Source: a virus (lineage: Duplodnaviria; Heunggongvirae; Uroviricota; Caudoviricetes). From it: 8,057 nt of DNA. The first letter of the stretch is position 1, and every line of letters starts with the position of its first letter. This document shows positions 1,062-7,494 of this stretch, piece by piece. The notes below the pieces were generated by a model. It was given only the letters and a program-made list of their open reading frames with translations. It did no database searches and was not told the DNA's origin. The translations under genes and the position numbers were made by a program. Location of the stretch: the IMG/VR virus record IMGVR_UViG_2703718806_000009; one strand, 5' to 3'.

Positions 1062-1105
1062 TTGCCTCCATAGTCCACATAGTGTAACACTATGTGTTAT
1101 ATAAA
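1062..1105 (+). promoter_or_regulatory. putative promoter/operator of the toxin-antitoxin operon; 21-bp near-perfect palindrome CACATAGTGTAACACTATGTG at 1076-1096
   Basis: TTGCCT (1062-1067) as a -35-like hexamer, TATATA/TATAAA (1098-1105) as -10-like, and the palindrome overlapping them, ending 24 nt upstream of the toxin ATG (RBS GAGG 1111-1114). Type II TA operons are typically autorepressed by the antitoxin at palindromic operators. Confidence 0.4.
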
Positions 1106-1119
1106 ATGCAGAGGCAGGT

Positions 1120-1492
1120 ATGCGAATTTTCAAAAACGCCTGGTTTGAACGTTTCGCCCGAAAACATCGGATTTCCGATAAATCGCTGCGCAAAATCGTG
1201 GAGCAGGCCGATAAGGGGGATCATATCCGCAAATTTGGGTAGTGGTGTCATTAAACAAAGATTAGCCCGAAGTGGTGGCGGAAAATCAGGCGGTTACCGG
1301 ACAATAATTTTTTACCGCGTTGCAGAAAAAGCCTTTTTCATCTACGCATACGCAAAGAATGAACGAGAGAATATCACTGCTATAGAGGAAAATGCTTTTC
1401 GAAAAGCCGCTCCCCATGTCCTCAATCTTACTGATGAACAGCTGGCACAATTGATTCAACAAGGCCAGTTCACGGAGGTACCCAATGAGTAA
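1120..1492 (+). pseudogene. RelE/ParE-superfamily (HigB-like) mRNA-interferase toxin, interrupted by a +1 frameshift in a G5 homopolymer (1215-1219)
   Basis: Frame 1 from ATG 1120 gives MRIFKNAWFERFARKHRISDKSLRKIVEQADKGDHIRKFG then TAG at 1240-1242. Frame 2 continues ...GIISANLGSGVIKQRLARSGGGKSGGYRTIIFYRVAEKAFFIYAYAKNERENI... to stop 1490-1492. Removing one G restores a single ~123-aa ORF with the GGGKSGGYR..F.Y..KNE motif I associate with this toxin family. The track ORF start at 1094 is an artefact of the shifted frame. Confidence 0.6.
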
Positions 1493-1802
1493 AAATTACC
1501 GCAGTGATGCACTTGCATCTGTACATGAAATGATGGAGTCACTCCATGATATCGGTGCAATCACAAAACAAACTATGCGCGAATTCGATGAAACTTGTCT
1601 TCAGCCTGCGCCGGTAATGTCTCCAGAAAGGATCCGTGCACTGCGAGAACGCGAGCATCTGTCTCAACCTGTTTTTGCCAGATACCTCAACGTCAGTAAA
1701 AACCTGATATCAGACTGGGAACGAGGAGTGAAACGCCCGGGAGGTGCAGCTCTTCGGCTTCTTTCAGTTGTCGAGAAAAACGGGATCCAGGTAATATCCT
1801 GA
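1485..1802 (+). CDS. HTH DNA-binding antitoxin (XRE/YiaG-like) partner of the upstream toxin
   Basis: 105-aa ORF whose ATG overlaps the toxin stop (ATGAGTAA), with GGAGG 7-8 nt upstream. C-terminal half has an HTH-like signature (SPERIRALREREHLSQPVFARYLNVSKNLISDWERGVKRPGGAALRLL). Toxin-first order is typical of HigBA-like modules. Confidence 0.75.
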   Translation: MSKNYRSDALASVHEMMESLHDIGAITKQTMREFDETCLQPAPVMSPERIRALREREHLSQPVFARYLNVSKNLISDWERGVKRPGGAALRLLSVVEKNGIQVIS

Positions 1803-1904: not shown

Positions 1905-2060
1905 TTACTCCTCAGGTTCGTAAGCTGTGAAGACAGCGACCTCCGTCTGGCCGGTTCGGATTCGTACCTCGCAGAGGTCTTTCCTCGTTACCAGTGCCGT
2001 CATTATGACGGTTAAACAGATGACAATCAGGGCGATTAACATCGCCTTTTGCTGCTTCAT
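1905..2060 (-). CDS. hok: Hok-family type I toxin (HokD/RelF-like small membrane toxin)
   Basis: Translation MKQQKAMLIALIVICLTVIMTALVTRKDLCEVRIRTGQTEVAVFTAYEPEE is near-identical to Hok/RelF as I recall it, with one N-terminal transmembrane helix and the conserved KDLCEVRIRTGQTEVAVF periplasmic part. Confidence 0.85.
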   Translation of the reverse strand: MKQQKAMLIALIVICLTVIMTALVTRKDLCEVRIRTGQTEVAVFTAYEPEE

Positions 2061-2117
2061 AGCCTGCTTCTCCTTGCCTTTCGGCACGTAAGAGGCTAAC
2101 CTACATGTGCAAAGCAT
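1905..2117 (-). CDS. mok: Mok-like reading frame (in-frame N-terminal extension of hok that permits hok translation)
   Basis: The 70-aa track ORF starts MLCTCRLASYVPKGKEKQA upstream of the hok Met, the same arrangement I recall for chromosomal mok/hok pairs (compare MokC MLNTCRVPLTDRKVKEKRAMKQHK...). Confidence 0.55.
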   Translation of the reverse strand: MLCTCRLASYVPKGKEKQAMKQQKAMLIALIVICLTVIMTALVTRKDLCEVRIRTGQTEVAVFTAYEPEE

Positions 2118-3154: not shown

Positions 3155-3238
3155 TCAACCCCAGCGGCAAATCGAATAAACCACCAGCGCTACCGCCATT
3201 GCAACTCCTGCCGTTACGAATGCCTCAGGCCAGGTCAT
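3155..3238 (-). CDS. possible 27-aa hydrophobic peptide (MTWPEAFVTAGVAMAVALVVYSICRWG), overlapping the 3' end of the upstream gene
   Basis: ATG at 3238-3236 lies inside the last codons (GATGACCTGGCCTGA) of the preceding ORF in another frame. Has a 19-residue hydrophobic stretch. Below the track size cutoff, only a weak RBS (GAGA), no homolog recognised. Confidence 0.2.
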   Translation of the reverse strand: MTWPEAFVTAGVAMAVALVVYSICRWG

Positions 3239-3419
3239 CGTAAACTATCTCAGCGCCAATCAGTCCGTTTCGCTTCAGGCAGTCCATCGCTTTATACGGT
3301 AATTTGGCTGACAGGCGAAAATCACCCTGCAGCATCAGGCTTATTCCCTTATCCCGGGCTTTCGCTCTGACCGCTGCCTCGCTACGACCAATCAGACTGC
3401 CGATACTTTCGACAGTCAT
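3225..3419 (-). CDS. small hypothetical protein with HTH-like segment (64 aa from the ATG at 3419; track ORF extends to 3569)
   Basis: Track ORF 3225..3569, but its first 50 codons overlap the upstream gene by 91 nt and are R/G/A-rich. The internal Met gives MTVESIGSLIGRSEAAVRAKARDKGISLMLQGDFRLSAKLPYKAMDCLKRNGLIGAEIVYDDLA, with SIGSLIGRSEAAVRAKARDKGIS resembling a helix-turn-helix. Confidence 0.45.
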   Translation of the reverse strand: MTVESIGSLIGRSEAAVRAKARDKGISLMLQGDFRLSAKLPYKAMDCLKRNGLIGAEIVYDDLA

Positions 3420-3478
3420 CGTTCCCGCGCACTGCCGGAGTATCAGAATTTCAGCCCGGCACCACGTCTTCCACCCAC

Positions 3479-4240
3479 TCACCGCTGCTGTTCTCTGGTG
3501 GCGGTAATATCCCGGAGAATATCCCGGCACTTGTTCAGCTCCCGCAGCGCGGCGCAGACTCGCTCCCACTTCTGAACCTGACCTTTTGCCCGGCGCAGCT
3601 CGCGGTTAGCCACATGCAGCGATGGTAAAATCAGACCATCCGGATGTTTTCTGGTGAACGACGGCTGTGACTGCACTGTGACCGCCACACTTTCAGTTTT
3701 TATTTCTTCCTGTGTTTCCGCTTCCCGGACAGGTAACGCAATACCTGCTGGCTGAGGAATGGCTTTACCATCCGTTTCCGCTACGGATGCAGCTTCCGGC
3801 TCTGCCGGTAAATCAGCGCCCGGTATGCAGTAACGAAATTTACCGTTCTGATTTACGCGTGCCAGGCGCCCCGTTGCTGTTACGACCGCCAACGTGGAAG
3901 CAACCTTGCGAATGCTAACACCGAACTTATCCGCCAGTTCCTCACACGTTTTAGCCCCATCCTGACAGATAAACTCAATCATCATGTCCGCGGTAACTTT
4001 TTGTTCGACCTCCCCGGTCAGCACATCCGGTACTTCAGACTGTGCTGGCTGTTCTTCGGTTACCCCGGATTCACCTTCACCAGCCAGAAACCAGGTGTGA
4101 CCCGTTTTATCAACAACGCCATTTTCTTTGAGTTCCCACAGTTCGTTGAGAACTTCTTCACGGCTGATATCAAGCCGCGCCGCCAGTTCAACAGAATTGG
4201 CTTTACCCATCGCTTTCAGTGCATGCAATACGGTTTCCAT
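3479..4240 (-). CDS. prophage DNA-binding protein with two winged-helix-like repeats and an acidic linker (YdaW/DUF1627-like)
   Basis: 253-aa ORF with GGAGG RBS 9 nt upstream. Two repeats of a wH-like segment ([33 protein letters not shown] and [35 protein letters not shown]) separated by an E/Q-rich linker. Sits downstream of the dnaC-like gene as in Rac-type prophages. Family name is from memory. Confidence 0.65.
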
Positions 4241-4269: not shown

Positions 4270-5010
4270 TCAGTTCCTGTGCTGGCTGACGTTCGGACGC
4301 CAGCTCTCCCAGTTAAACGTCACCCAGCGACCACCGTTCATGGACATGCGGTCCATCACCCGCTCGCCGAGAAGTGTATTCATCGCTGCATGGTTAAGAT
4401 TTGTCAGCATCCCCACACTGAGTAACGATGCCGTTCTGCGGTCAACAATCTGATTCAGCGTGACCTGCTCATTACGCGTATCCCGTTGCATGCCAATTTC
4501 ATCCAGTACCAGCAGGTCAACGCCACACAATCCCTGCAAAAATTTTTCGCCCGAGTTTTTGTTGTCGTAGCTGCCATGTAACGCCAGCATCACATCCGCC
4601 ACTGTTATCACAATCACACTGCGACCTTTCGCCAGAAGGTGGTTGCCAATAGCCGCCGCCAGGTGTTTTTTTCCTGTGCCAGGCCTGCCACTGAAAACAA
4701 AATTCGTACAGCCGCCTTCCAGCTCTGCCGCAATGGATTTCGCCTGACTCAGGGCATGGCGCTGACCATCGTTCTGCACCCGGTAGTTACCGAACGTACA
4801 CTTCCGGTGAAGCAGCTGGATACCGGAGCGGTTAATAATTTTTTCAACCCGCGTCTGATGATTCAGACGATTAACCTCCTCGCTGCGCTTACGCCCTTCA
4901 GCAAGCTGCCATTCCCGCCACTCCGCCACCGTACGGTACGGAGGGATTGCATCCTGCGGCACAAATCTGCTGACTCTTGCCAGAACACCACCTGACGTAA
5001 TGTTTTTCAT
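4270..5010 (-). CDS. DnaC-like replicative helicase loader (AAA+ ATPase)
   Basis: 246-aa ORF with Walker [16 protein letters not shown] and Walker B LLVLDEIG, and extended similarity to E. coli DnaC (..VITVADVM.., [29 protein letters not shown]). RBS AGGGGG upstream. Confidence 0.9.
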
Positions 5011-5016
5011 GATGCG

Positions 5017-5970
5017 CTACCCCCTGAAACCCGGCGGAATTTCGGTATCCGGTTCAGAAATATGATTCACGCAACGCTGCGCGGGACCACGCCACAGTCG
5101 AATAACCAGTTCATCCCATTTCTCACGGAGTTTTTCCGGGCTCTTGATGTTTTTTATCCAGAACGGATCCCGTTGTGCCCGGCTGAACATTTCGCAAATT
5201 TGTCTGTGACTTCTTCCATCCAGCATCCGCATTGTGCGCACGTCATTGGCCCACGCCGTCCAGTTGGGCTCTTTCGGTCGCGTGATCTCACCATCGTCAC
5301 TGGCAGCCTGTTCGTACAGGTTTACAACCCGCCCCCAGATCCACTGCGCACATGTCAAATCCTCCCGGGTTCCCCACTGGCGTTTTTTCACGCTGAACAC
5401 AACAGCATCAGGATGGCGGGTTAAAAACGCCTGTTCAGCCGTCAACTCGTCCGGTTGCGAAGCGTCCGGACAAGAGAGTTTTTTATTCTCTGTTGTATTC
5501 TCTGTAGGATCATCGGGCCATTTTGACCTGATGACATTGGGCCGTTTTGAACCAATGGAACGTTTCATTTTGACCTCTTCCATCGTGTCATTTTGACCTG
5601 ATGGAGTGGCGCATTTTGACCCGATGGATTCGTTCACTTTGCCATCATCTAAAAGCGCGCTATCGTAGTTAATTGTGTAAAAATTAGTCATATCACGCTT
5701 CGATTTATTGAGCTTTTCGCTACGCAAAAGCCCCAGCGCTTTCAGACTTGCAAACGCACGCTTTAACGTTGACTCTGACCAGAACGGAAACTGTTCCAGC
5801 CATTGTTCCGTTGTGTTGTAAATCCAGCGAACGCCATCACATTCCATGCCGGAACTGGTATCCCTCAACCAGTAATGCAGTTGCTGCAACACAATGGCTT
5901 CGTTTAAACCAATCTTCATCGCCAGCTGTGTGTTTATAACCAGCGGGCGTTCAGCAAAAAGAAGGCTCAT
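5017..5970 (-). CDS. phage replication initiator (O-like replisome organiser) with DnaT-like C-terminal tail
   Basis: Track ORF 5017..6012 begins with a GTG lacking an RBS; the ATG at 5970 (MSLLFAERPLV...) is preferred. C-terminus ...ISEPDTEIPPGFRG matches the C-terminal end of E. coli DnaT (..VSEPDSQIPPGFRG) as I recall it. The middle of the protein is encoded by the iteron array. Confidence 0.85.
   Translation of the reverse strand: MSLLFAERPLVINTQLAMKIGLNEAIVLQQLHYWLRDTSSGMECDGVRWIYNTTEQWLEQFPFWSESTLKRAFASLKALGLLRSEKLNKSKRDMTNFYTINYDSALLDDGKVNESIGSKCATPSGQNDTMEEVKMKRSIGSKRPNVIRSKWPDDPTENTTENKKLSCPDASQPDELTAEQAFLTRHPDAVVFSVKKRQWGTREDLTCAQWIWGRVVNLYEQAASDDGEITRPKEPNWTAWANDVRTMRMLDGRSHRQICEMFSRAQRDPFWIKNIKSPEKLREKWDELVIRLWRGPAQRCVNHISEPDTEIPPGFRG
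5519..5650. repeat. replication-origin-like iteron array inside the initiator gene: 5-6 copies of CATTTTGACC(T/C)GATGG at ~23-bp spacing, followed by a moderately AT-rich stretch
   Basis: Copies at 5519-5533 (CATTTTGACCTGATG), 5543-5558 (CGTTTTGAACCAATGG), 5566-5580 (CATTTTGACCTCTTC), 5589-5604 (CATTTTGACCTGATGG), 5612-5627 (CATTTTGACCCGATGG) and a degenerate 5635-5649 (CACTTTGCCATCATC). Start-to-start spacing 24,23,23,23,23 bp. Same layout as lambda ori within gene O. Confidence 0.7.
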
Positions 5971-6472
5971 AATTCCATCCGGCTTTTTGTTGGTACTGGT
6001 GACGATAGGCACGCTTGAAAGCGATTGCTTTTTCTATAAGCTCGTCTGTCTCACGTTCCACAACAGCTGGATCTGCAAAAAGCAGCCCGGACTCCACCAC
6101 ATCGCCATATTCTTTGTTTAACCCGGCAATCATGTACGTAATGCTTTTTCCGTCAGTAATTTCGCGGTACAACCTGAAATCACTAATCCGGATAGCCTCC
6201 ATAATTGCCGGAATCAGCGCCGTGAATTTTTCACGCTTATCCCTGGTGTCGATAGCCTTCCAGCGTTCGAATATCTTCACCCGGTTAACGCCAAGCGCAC
6301 GCTGATCAACCCCGCCATCATCAAGCGTGACACGCTGAACATCGATGTTCGGGCGTTCCTGTAGAGCCCAGAAGGCTTCAGTGATTAATATCGTCGCCTG
6401 CTCCTGCGTCATTCCTGGTCGGCTTATCCAGGCATCCAGGGCATCGCGTGCCTGCTCAAGGGTGATTTTCAT
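5951..6472 (-). CDS. YdaT-like protein (occupies the cII position between cro-like and replication genes)
   Basis: 173-aa ORF overlapping the dicC stop by 17 nt and the initiator start by 20 nt. Segment DKREKFTALIPAIMEAIRISDFRL resembles my recollection of Rac YdaT (REKIQKLIPAILAILPRELRHRL). Assignment is by memory and gene order. Confidence 0.55.
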   Translation of the reverse strand: MKITLEQARDALDAWISRPGMTQEQATILITEAFWALQERPNIDVQRVTLDDGGVDQRALGVNRVKIFERWKAIDTRDKREKFTALIPAIMEAIRISDFRLYREITDGKSITYMIAGLNKEYGDVVESGLLFADPAVVERETDELIEKAIAFKRAYRHQYQQKAGWNYEPSFC

Positions 6473-6686
6473 TGTTCAACCGCCCCGCCCGCTTCGTCTT
6501 ACGATATTCGTCATAAACTTTGGGGTCATACTGAAGCTCCCCGCCGGATGCCTCTTGCAGGCGCATCGCGCGACCTTCAGGTACTAGCTCCCCTTTCCAG
6601 CTATAAAGCGAAGCCAAACGAATACCAGCAGCTTGTGCAAGTTTTGTTTTTGAACCGAAATACAAAAGTGCATCAGTTTTAAGCAT
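6456..6686 (-). CDS. dicC: DicC-like Cro-type HTH regulator
   Basis: 76-aa ORF divergent from dicA. MLKTDALLYFGSKTKLAQAAGIRLASLYSWKGELVPEGRAMRLQEASGGELQYDPKVYDEYRKTKRAGRLNNENHP matches Qin DicC as I recall it, in length and sequence. Confidence 0.8.
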   Translation of the reverse strand: MLKTDALLYFGSKTKLAQAAGIRLASLYSWKGELVPEGRAMRLQEASGGELQYDPKVYDEYRKTKRAGRLNNENHP

Positions 6687-6769
6687 TTAAAACACCTTGG
6701 TAGTTAGTCATAGCTAACAAAATAAATGTTAACAAAAACATAGTCAATAAGGTTTAGCATTAGCTAACT
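6687..6769. promoter_or_regulatory. divergent dicC/dicA promoter-operator region with repeated operator-like dyads
   Basis: GTTAGTCATAGCTAAC (6703-6718, arms GTTAG/CTAAC) and TTTAGCATTAGCTAAC (6754-6768) in an 83-bp AT-rich intergenic between divergent repressor genes. Confidence 0.6.
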
Positions 6770-7177
6770 ATGGATACAAAAAATTTAACCATTGGCGAAC
6801 GCATTAGACATCGCCGAAAAAACCTCAAATACACCCAAAGGTCTCTTGCTAAAGCCCTGAAAATTTCTCATGTATCGGTTTCACAATGGGAACGGGATGT
6901 TAGCGAACCTACAGGGAAGAATCTTTTTGCCCTCAGCAACGTACTGCAGTGCTCGCCAACATGGATTCTATTTGGCGATGAAGACAAGCAGCCATCACCA
7001 CCTATTGAGGAGCCAGTTGCTCTATCCCCCAAAGAACATGAGCTCCTTGAGCTTTTTAATGCATTGCCTGAATCAGAACAGGATGCTCAGCTCACCGAGA
7101 TGCGCGCCCGAGTAAAAAATTTCAACAAACTCTTTGAAGAGTTATTAAAAGCCCGTCAACGAACAAACAAAAGATAA
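6770..7177 (+). CDS. dicA: DicA-like CI-type repressor (XRE-family HTH), repressor of the dicB division-inhibition operon
   Basis: 135-aa ORF MDTKNLTIGERIRHRRKNLKYTQRSLAKALKISHVSVSQWERDVSEPTGKNLFALSNVLQCSPTWILFGDEDKQP... matches E. coli DicA as I recall it. HTH at residues ~20-40. Confidence 0.9.
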   Translation: MDTKNLTIGERIRHRRKNLKYTQRSLAKALKISHVSVSQWERDVSEPTGKNLFALSNVLQCSPTWILFGDEDKQPSPPIEEPVALSPKEHELLELFNALPESEQDAQLTEMRARVKNFNKLFEELLKARQRTNKR

Positions 7178-7212: not shown

Positions 7213-7264
7213 TGTTAGTCATGGCAAACAAAACACTTGACCGAACTGTTAGCCATGACTAATC
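7213..7264 (+). promoter_or_regulatory. promoter of the ydfA-dicF-dicB operon with two operator-like sites of the same family as the dicA/dicC intergenic repeats
   Basis: -35 TTGACC (7237-7242), 16-bp spacer, -10 TAATCT (7259-7264). Operator-like GTTAGTCATGGC (7214-7225) and GTTAGCCATGACTAA (7248-7262) are inverted copies sharing the TTAG(T/C)CAT core; the second lies between -35 and -10. Confidence 0.5.
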
Positions 7265-7341
7265 TTGCTTACATCAAGACACCGCACGGTGTTCTCAGCA
7301 AACAGTTCCGCTACCCGGCGTTAAGGGCAAATGAGGTCAAC

Positions 7342-7494
7342 ATGGATACACTCAATCTTGGCAACAACGAATCTCTGGTATGCGGTGTGTTCCCTAACCA
7401 GGACGGCACGTTTACCGCGATGACGTATACCAGAAGCAAAACGTTTAAAACTGAAGCTGGCGCGCGTCGCTGGTTAGCCAGAAACACTAACTGA
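7342..7494 (+). CDS. ydfA: YdfA-like small protein (DUF1391)
   Basis: MDTLNLGNNESLVCGVFPNQDGTFTAMTYTRSKTFKTEAGARRWLARNTN, 50 aa, GAGG RBS 5 nt upstream of ATG 7342. Track ORF 7237..7494 would begin at the -35 box of its own promoter, so the internal start is preferred. Confidence 0.6.
   Translation: MDTLNLGNNESLVCGVFPNQDGTFTAMTYTRSKTFKTEAGARRWLARNTN

Follow-up and report, generated by a model that had tools for sequence, protein, structure and literature searches.

The deoxyribonucleic acid analyzed here, an 8,057-nucleotide stretch from the IMG/VR virus record IMGVR_UViG_2703718806_000009 that is called the window throughout, comes from an E. coli lambdoid prophage, of which it forms the immunity and replication region. 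With a probability of roughly three in four, positions 5477-5649 are the replication origin of this prophage, placed within the gene of its own initiator protein, where iterons would be bound by dimers of the N-terminal domain of the initiator (N-domain), adjoining AT-rich 12-mers would be unwound and a DnaC-like helicase loader would be recruited; for binding, unwinding, loading and origin activity alike, this reading draws on sequence comparison and on analogy with known origins. It is carried by the repeats themselves, their conservation at the DNA level, their family-wide position and phasing, a covariation between one residue and one base, the fold of the N-domain and the domain homologies of the initiator. 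The preliminary description of this DNA had taken the iterons in the initiator gene for a likely prophage origin, and this held in every comparative test that was run.

An origin within the initiator gene is textbook for phage lambda and for the RepA_N plasmids and was therefore to be expected in a lambdoid prophage. What the comparison adds is a probable origin for a widespread prophage replication module which has no Pfam family and whose relatives are spread across Proteobacteria and Firmicutes. The family also gives two testable predictions, a pairing rule between initiator residue S67 and one iteron base and a conserved 12-mer as candidate unwinding element, and these are the parts worth experiment.

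The iteron array and its conservation as DNA

The six-unit array spans 5511-5649, which is nt 322-460 of the 954-nt gene, in the linker-coding part of the minus-strand initiator open reading frame (ORF). The repeat search gave five 23-nt units whose starts are 24, 23, 23 and 23 bp apart, and a sixth, degenerate unit in register 23 bp from its neighbour, having the core TGGCAAAGTGAAC and forming the tail of an array reported by Tandem Repeats Finder at 5583-5641 (coordinates of all units are given in Table 1). For the 16-mer CATTTTGACCYGATGG, four matches at three or fewer mismatches (5519, 5543, 5589 and 5612) were obtained against 0.12 expected, and none of 200 shuffles reached four; the copy at 5566 has only the TTTTGACC core in common with it. 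The dyad symmetry of the unit is CATC-nn-GTCA-TTT-TGAC-nn-GATG, with both arms recognisable in four of the six. Five good copies and one degenerate copy at 23-24 bp had been counted in the preliminary description; the spacing (24/23/23/23/23) stands, but the units are better graded as three good, two moderate and one degenerate. The translation of the ORF at 5017-5970 agrees with the placing of the repeats in the linker-coding part with its SIGSK/RSKWP-like segments, the linker protein at the repeats reading SIGSKCATPSGQNDTMEEVKMKRSIGSKRPNVIRSKWP. Motif scans of the 8-kb window gave no second iteron cluster.

The repeats are under selection as DNA and are not protein repeats, because their frames vary, their wobble identity is high and iterons stay invariant amid diverged flanks. 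Since 23 is no multiple of three, the unit is read in all three frames: the cores GGTCAAAATG, taken in gene orientation, lie in frames 2, 1, 0, 2, 1 and 1, and therefore the linker peptides differ (SIGSK, SGQND, EVKMK, RSKWP) and make no true protein repeat. When third codon positions are compared with those of six enterobacterial homologs, identity is only 0.31-0.51 in the N-domain but rises to 0.67-0.85 in the iterons and to 0.82-1.00 in the 12-mers. A four-way DNA alignment that includes mEp460 and two Klebsiella phages shows several invariant iterons between flanks that have diverged.

The family comparison was done on 11 phage initiators and 80 genome loci of many orders, and 89 homologs entered the pattern counts. 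The scan of viral contigs yielded only relatives at least 94% identical, which were used for the copy number of the 12-mer, and the diversity came from the scan of genome contigs. Relatives of the N-domain occur in 155 phage records (Klebsiella, Erwinia, Pseudomonas, Providencia, Vibrio, Staphylococcus, Bacillus, Listeria and others) and in at least 309 loci of species-representative genomes. Equivalent palindromic arrays are found at the matching gene position in most of the 89 homologs, from Enterobacterales to Bacillus and Staphylococcus. In the phage homologs and the 80 genome loci the sites have the form arms-CA(A/T)3-4TG-arms and lie at about gene nt 300-470, directly behind the N-domain, with a core density of 1.34 per 100 nt at gene nt 290-520 versus 0.20 elsewhere in the loci. 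The CAAAATG centre is universal, and the arms are clade-specific (GGT/ACC, GGG/CCC, GTG/CAC, TGTT/AACA, GGAT/ATCC) yet palindromic. Some of the loci which fall outside the search pattern have variant centres with unchanged phasing, for example Desulfuromonas (GTGCAAATTCGCC, four times) and Pseudomonas phage USP_25. The preliminary description had allowed for repeats of purely coding origin, with a spacing not kept among homologs; a distance of 22-24 bp between consecutive cores recurs family-wide (136 cases, and 46 bp in another 20).

Predicted iteron recognition and the mosaic initiator

The strongest in-silico evidence here that the N-domain reads the iterons is a covariation between a single residue and a single base. 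Among 63 non-redundant combinations of protein and arm, the S67 column of the alignment and the base adjoining the CAAAATG centre (position -1) share 1.0 bit of mutual information, the next best column reaching 0.57; serine goes with T in 42 of 42 combinations, aspartate with G in 14 of 14, and arginine with A or C. S67 is located at the N-terminus, in the first turn, of the predicted recognition helix 66-78, and the family predicts from this a rule that pairs one residue with one base (S67 with T, D67 with G). Formation of a cruciform or hairpin by the palindromic units, instead of dimer binding, was considered and set aside: symmetric recognition by a protein explains the changes of the arms equally well, and the S67 covariation favours such recognition.

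The structure of amino acids (aa) 1-106 was predicted by AlphaFold2 from a 68-sequence alignment of short proteins, many of them marked partial and used for this purpose only, with a mean predicted local distance difference test score (pLDDT) of 85.8. The model is a winged helix-turn-helix of DnaD-like type, and its best structural matches are 4pql, 4pt7, 4pta and 5kbj (RepA_N/DnaD-type initiators). The domain is accordingly described as RepA_N-like by predicted fold and is not called a RepA_N member, because the Pfam RepA_N model fails to match it. A Pfam search with the initiator gave no family at E 0.01 and sub-threshold noise only at E 1, a sequence search of the PDB with the N-domain profile found nothing, and against lambda O residues 1-143 the N-domain has no BLASTP similarity, nor is Pfam Phage_rep_O matched.

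As a whole the initiator is a mosaic of three parts: the N-domain, which is RepA_N-like and has iterons of its own, a C-domain of the lambda-O type, and a DnaT-like tail that goes with DnaC. In the eleven-protein alignment the first ~105 residues are conserved, whereas the C-domains behind them belong to at least four unrelated types (lambda-O-like, Phg_2220_C, DnaB_2/DnaD-like and others). Klebsiella phages have 78% DNA identity over window positions 5487-5913, which take in the greater part of the N-domain together with the iterons and the 12-mers; beyond these positions they switch to another C-domain. The partners encoded downstream vary too: the window has a DnaC-like one, Pseudomonas phage AF a primase-helicase and Bacillus phage BhaS-171 DnaB. 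Because C-domains and partners switch behind them, the inherited unit is the N-domain together with the repeats, and the protein offers a clean example of specificity modules swapped at an origin.

In its final 19 aa (RCVNHISEPDTEIPPGFRG) the initiator agrees residue for residue with the tail of "primosomal protein I" from Shigella phage POCJ13 (locus L173, 2000-2995), a protein otherwise unrelated to it, whose gene, like the initiator gene here, precedes a DnaC-like gene. The DnaT-like tail seems to move together with the DnaC-like gene as a module of its own; it may be a peptide that contacts the loader, or else a recombination joint.

The 12-mer element and competing explanations

Two tandem 12-mers form the core of an AT-rich block at 5477-5509, which has a GC content of 0.27-0.30 and a sense-strand purine fraction of 0.60-0.70 and holds the ninth least stable 30-mer of the window. 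The 12-mer TACAGAGAnTAC is present in 1-5 copies directly behind the iterons in 70 of the 89 loci, including Geobacillus, Staphylococcus and Limosilactobacillus, and within these 89 loci it is almost confined to that position. Its consensus is T-A-C-(T/A)-ACAGAGA-n-T-A-C, the variable base being a second codon position (N, T, I or S); another frame is used by four copies, and in two places the spacing is 11 instead of 12. The Thr-Glu of the linker is encoded ACA-GAG in 164 of 197 instances (83%), whereas codon usage in the remainder of these genes leads one to expect about 9.5%. The GC content of the block is ~0.33 family-wide and 0.325 in GC-rich hosts, in which the C-domains have 0.56. In the BLASTP alignment with lambda O, the AT-rich region of lambda falls opposite window ~5478-5510 and not opposite 5641-5720. 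From the lambda-like position, the family conservation, the codon bias and the steady low GC, the 12-mer block is judged to be the conserved AT-rich origin element of the family and the likeliest site of unwinding.

More tentatively, TACAGAGAnTAC may be an undescribed origin element of a large phage and prophage initiator family, Gram-negative as well as Gram-positive, and act as a single-strand landing or unwinding code read by the N-domain; such a code, analogous to the DnaA-trios or the RK2 13-mers and independent of C-domain and loader, is a conjecture of the same modest standing. The mechanism by which RepA_N-type initiators open DNA is stated to be unknown (PMC7145576); the 12-mer code together with the rule for S67 and base -1 would, if true, give a handle on it. 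The 12-mer was also considered as a recombination linker at module junctions, and it does sit where the C-domains swap; this was rejected, second-order selection seeming too weak for wobble conservation across phyla.

The segment behind the 12-mers, on the promoter-distal side, is commonly GC-rich in the family (mean 0.52 versus 0.33 in the 12-mer block). In the window it lies at 5440-5476, with a GC content of 0.60-0.67, CGTCCGG twice 15 bp apart and the self-complementary GTCCGGAC; Klebsiella phages have GGTTGC-AGC-GCAACC at this position.

In the proposed mechanism, dimers of the N-domain (aa 1-106) would bind the six phased dyad iterons, arms-CAAAATG-arms, every 23 bp, with S67 at the start of the recognition helix reading the base beside the CAAAATG centre. 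Cooperative binding on these A-tract-centred sites may bend or wrap the DNA and so destabilise the adjoining, promoter-distal and purine-skewed 12-mer block at 5483-5506, the probable unwinding element, one strand of which the initiator may hold in a sequence-specific way. Recruitment of the DnaC-like loader, which would put host DnaB on the DNA, would then fall to the lambda-O-like C-domain and the DnaT-like tail, and transcription from the pR-like promoter (~6747) would cross the origin as in lambda.

Several points weigh against this account of the origin. The similarity of the N-domain to RepA_N is moderate (template modelling score 0.66, Foldseek E 1.7e-3), and the Pfam model (PF06970) has no match at E <= 1 in 11 family members and none precomputed for 120 database relatives. 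About one fifth of the homologs deviate, either lacking iterons that can be recognised (several Neobacillus loci) or carrying another repeat (one Geobacillus locus, 21 bp, ten times). The 12-mer is read as Thr-Glu-x-Thr in most loci, so that a role at the protein level is possible. The S67/base covariation is partly confounded by phylogeny and the D/G class may be a single clade, yet all columns of the alignment have one common phylogeny and only the S67 column is perfect. No paper on the N-domain family, its iterons, the ACAGAGA 12-mers, mEp460 replication or iterons with DnaC-like loaders was found in the literature searched, a body of text that leaves most subscription journals outside and may miss older work. 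The number of 12-mers in the window and the stability of a second AT-rich stretch belong with the alternatives that they favour and are given there.

With regard to the exceptional homologs, the Neobacillus loci without any repeats behind the N-domain are several of L136, L143, L144, L147 and L164 (1750-2150), and in the Geobacillus locus (L150, 1873-2148) ten 21-bp repeats replace the 23-bp palindromic iterons; 21 is a multiple of three, possibly a protein repeat. The origins of such homologs may be elsewhere, or the proteins may have another role.

It is unlikely that the iterons are the origin and unwinding takes place at the promoter-proximal AT-rich sequence of ~5660-5710, leaving the 12-mers as a linker peptide, a recombination site or a priming site. 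The preliminary description had named 5641-5720, said to follow the repeats, as the AT-rich element of the origin. The stretch is indeed AT-rich: 5653-5720 has a GC content of 0.37 (0.28 in the central 50 nt), in 9 of 11 homologs the stretch is lower in GC than the remaining N-domain, and 5665-5694 (GC 0.23) is the second least stable 30-mer of the window and less stable than the 12-mer block. It also holds a relaxed DnaA box, TTTTACACA at 5674-5682 on the minus strand, overlapping the conserved codons of F-Y-T. However, the gene being on the minus strand, the stretch precedes the repeats in the direction of transcription, and the DnaA-box match, the only one found in the window, is at chance level (0.83 expected). 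The wobble identity of 5653-5720 is 0.26-0.57, as in the rest of the N-domain and with no extra conservation, the GC content of the stretch in homologs is 0.41-0.57, and in two Pseudomonas loci it equals or tops the N-domain mean; the conserved residues N, F, Y, T, I, N and Y account for the low GC, and the AT-richness is probably a by-product of amino-acid composition. The 12-mer block, by comparison, keeps its GC of 0.33 when the host is GC-rich. In lambda the AT-rich region is on the opposite side, and the last two iterons, those nearest to it, are the required ones (PMC7466680). The assignment of 5641-5720 as AT-rich origin element was therefore probably mistaken.

Of similarly low probability is an origin by descent which is inactive in this strain, the prophage being cryptic and decaying, with a 12-mer lost. 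The window has two 12-mers, against three in 75 of 79 near-identical relatives (range 1-5; the others have 1, 4 or 5), and this state could have weakened the window copy of the origin; the toxin-antitoxin and hok genes are of a kind frequent in cryptic prophages, and the prophage is visible for 8 kb only. Against this, two 12-mers are the normal number in the Proteus, SopranoGao, Pseudomonas AF and USP_25 homologs, the iterons of the window are identical or nearly so to those of the 79 relatives, and both ORFs, that of the initiator and the DnaC-like one, are intact over their full length. The preliminary description had taken the arrangement to imply an intact origin; the origin of the window is better called probably functional, because the ORFs are intact, the iterons are kept and two 12-mers are normal in more distant homologs. 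The copy-number polymorphism of the 12-mer is an in-frame 12-bp difference consistent with slippage, and one E. coli chromosome (H18) has +12 bp.

There is a still slimmer chance that the array is a genuine initiator-binding site with a chiefly regulatory purpose (autoregulation of read-through in the pR operon, titration or handcuffing, exclusion of related phages) and that replication starts elsewhere in the prophage. Plasmid iterons also serve copy control, and extra copies of lambda ori inhibit phage growth (PMC3349717, PMC4488673). But an AT-rich repeat under DNA-level selection adjoins the array in most homologs, which is the signature of an origin rather than of an operator; the layout fits two experimentally defined origin types, lambda and pSK41; and the window has a single iteron cluster. 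Last, that the array is a mere DNA image of a repetitive protein linker (SIGSK/RSKWP-like), functionless as DNA, can practically be dismissed: the protein does contain repeated short segments, and linkers of such initiators tolerate low complexity, that of pSK41 being dispensable as protein (PMC5703833), but the frame and wobble analyses already refute the idea, one DNA unit with a 23-bp period giving different peptides in three frames and wobble positions being better kept in the iterons than in the strongly conserved N-domain, and the units moreover are palindromic, which is meaningless for protein, and have arms that covary with a single residue of a separate domain.

Relation to known origins and gene context

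The arrangement resembles ori-lambda and the RepA_N plasmid origins and is a strict member of neither class, because the lambda-O N-domain and the P-type loader are absent and the RepA_N Pfam model is unmatched. As in lambda ori and O, and in the Shiga toxin (Stx) phage variants with six iterons, the origin would lie in the middle of the initiator gene. Further likenesses to lambda are the 4-6 dyad-symmetric iterons with an A-tract centre (lambda TCCCTCAAAACGAGGGA versus GGTCAAAATGACC here) at a spacing of 20-24 bp, the region, AT-rich and having a purine-rich sense strand, that adjoins the promoter-distal iteron, the transcription from pR, the homologous C-domain and the gene order cI, cro, cII-like, initiator, loader. 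In lambda the unwinding region is a 40-bp AT-rich, purine-asymmetric sequence promoter-distal of the iterons (PMC5043065). The preliminary description had spoken of the lambda ori-in-O arrangement; this is right for the origin-in-initiator layout and for the lambda-O-like C-domain, but not for the N-domain, which is RepA_N/DnaD-like by prediction and unrelated in sequence to that of O. The iteron arms differ from those of lambda as well, the AT-rich region here is made up of 12-mer repeats that are conserved, a DnaC-like AAA+ loader stands in the place of lambda P, and the initiator has a DnaT-like tail.

The fold of the N-domain is nearest to the RepA_N plasmid initiators (pSK41, pTZ2162) and to Vibrio PLE RepA, which are its best structural matches. 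RepA_N iterons are described as direct repeats of semi-palindromic form that converge on a poly-A tract (PMC7145576), and the arms-CAAAATG-arms design fits this description exactly. For pSK41 it is reported that the N-domain binds Rep boxes central in the rep gene, that the encoded linker is dispensable as protein and that the C-domain is host-specific (PMC5703833); here likewise the putative origin is central in the initiator gene, the linker is encoded by origin DNA and the C-domain varies with host or partner. Differences from the RepA_N plasmids are the unmatched Pfam RepA_N model and the occurrence in phages and prophages, and from pSK41 the lambda-O-like C-domain with a DnaC-like loader instead of a primase-binding domain; ACAGAGA 12-mers are not mentioned in the portions of the RepA_N origin descriptions that were available.

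A model for the 12-mers is given by the repeats of the DNA unwinding elements of RK2 and F and by the oriC 13-mers, which are likewise short AT-rich repeats beside initiator sites; for the RK2 oriV 13-mers (TrfA) and F RepE, the winged-helix Rep binds one strand sequence-specifically and every repeat is needed (PMC4081077). Unlike these, the element here has another sequence and period (12 versus 13) and lies within coding sequence. The rep gene (ORF13) of Lactococcus phage TP901-1, entered in GenBank as "replication protein, experimental", similarly has short repeats inside itself at nt ~354-408, although with a 15-bp period and not palindromic. These repeats were reportedly found to be needed for replication in the work of Ostergaard et al. 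2001. TP901-1 rep was tried as a characterised homolog of the N-domain and rejected as unrelated (hhalign probability 0.3%), so that it is an analogue only, as a further phage whose origin would lie in its initiator gene. Origins of this kind govern prophage induction dynamics and the incompatibility of co-resident prophages, including Stx-phage relatives.

The features of the window are collected in Table 1. It matches several E. coli chromosomes at 99.5% identity across 2.4 kb; at least 80% of this 2.4-kb replication region is present in 184 of 5426 complete E. coli genomes and some part of it is matched in 3040. The program-made ORF list begins the initiator at GTG 6012, and the ATG at 5970 was used here; the Prokaryotic Genome Annotation Pipeline (PGAP) names the protein "hypothetical protein" or "phage O protein family".

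Table 1. Positions of the origin elements, initiator domains and neighbouring genes in the window (HTH, helix-turn-helix)
Feature	Position	Strand	Remarks
Iteron 1, first in gene orientation, degenerate	5627-5649		core TGGCAAAGTGAAC at gene nt 327
Iteron 2, one arm good, the other poor	5604-5626
Iteron 3, best dyad CATCGTGTCATTTTGACCTGATG	5581-5603		invariant among Klebsiella phage homologs
Iteron 4, variant outer arms GAA...TTC	5558-5580
Iteron 5, arms CATTGG...CCAATG, centre CAAAACG in gene orientation	5535-5557
Iteron 6, last in gene orientation	5511-5533		adjoins the 12-mers
Two tandem 12-mers, TACAGAGAATAC and AACAGAGAATAA (gene orientation)	5483-5506	-	candidate unwinding element; core of AT-rich block 5477-5509
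Coding part of AT-rich stretch 5641-5720	5653-5720		codes the end of the N-domain (DMTNFYTINYDS, DMTNFYTINY)
Initiator gene	5017-5970	-	317 aa from ATG at 5970; PHROG 391 "replication initiation O-like", E 6.8e-90, aa 17-317
N-terminal winged-helix domain (predicted), aa 1-106	5653-5970	-	recognition helix aa 66-78, wing aa 82-85 and 96-100
C-terminal domain, lambda O C-domain homolog	5101-5415	-	BLASTP aa 140-290 versus lambda O 144-270, 36% identity over 151 columns, E 2e-25; PHROG 2357/277
C-terminal tail, DnaT C-terminus-like	5020-5085	-	NF002770 DnaT positions 158-179 match aa 296-317 weakly
DnaC-like helicase loader, directly downstream of initiator	4270-5010	-	NF009043, 468 bits (cut-off 389); DnaC equivalog E 1.2e-88; PHROG 50
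pR-like promoter, between cI-like and cro-like genes	6719-6747	-	TTGACT-17-TATTTT
cI-like repressor	6770-7177	+
Cro/DicC-like (cro-like)	6456-6686	-
YdaT/CII-like	5951-6472	-
DUF1627, N-terminal HTH-like matches	3479-4240	-	conserved prophage gene flanking the module
PHROG 30109 protein	3225-3569	-	conserved prophage gene flanking the module
DUF1391	7237-7494	+	conserved prophage gene flanking the module
ORF6N	2332-2883	-
Hok/Gef family gene	1905-2117	-	PF01848, E 4e-23
RelE-family toxin overlapping HTH_3 antitoxin-like gene	1094-1802	+	toxin PF06296, E 8e-33

The scan for promoters and terminators at 5300-6900 gave the pR-like site only, with nothing beyond expectation inside the origin, and this promoter is directed leftward via cro, the cII-like gene, the initiator and the loader. 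The toxin-antitoxin and Hok/Gef genes adjoin each other and lie downstream of the replication module.

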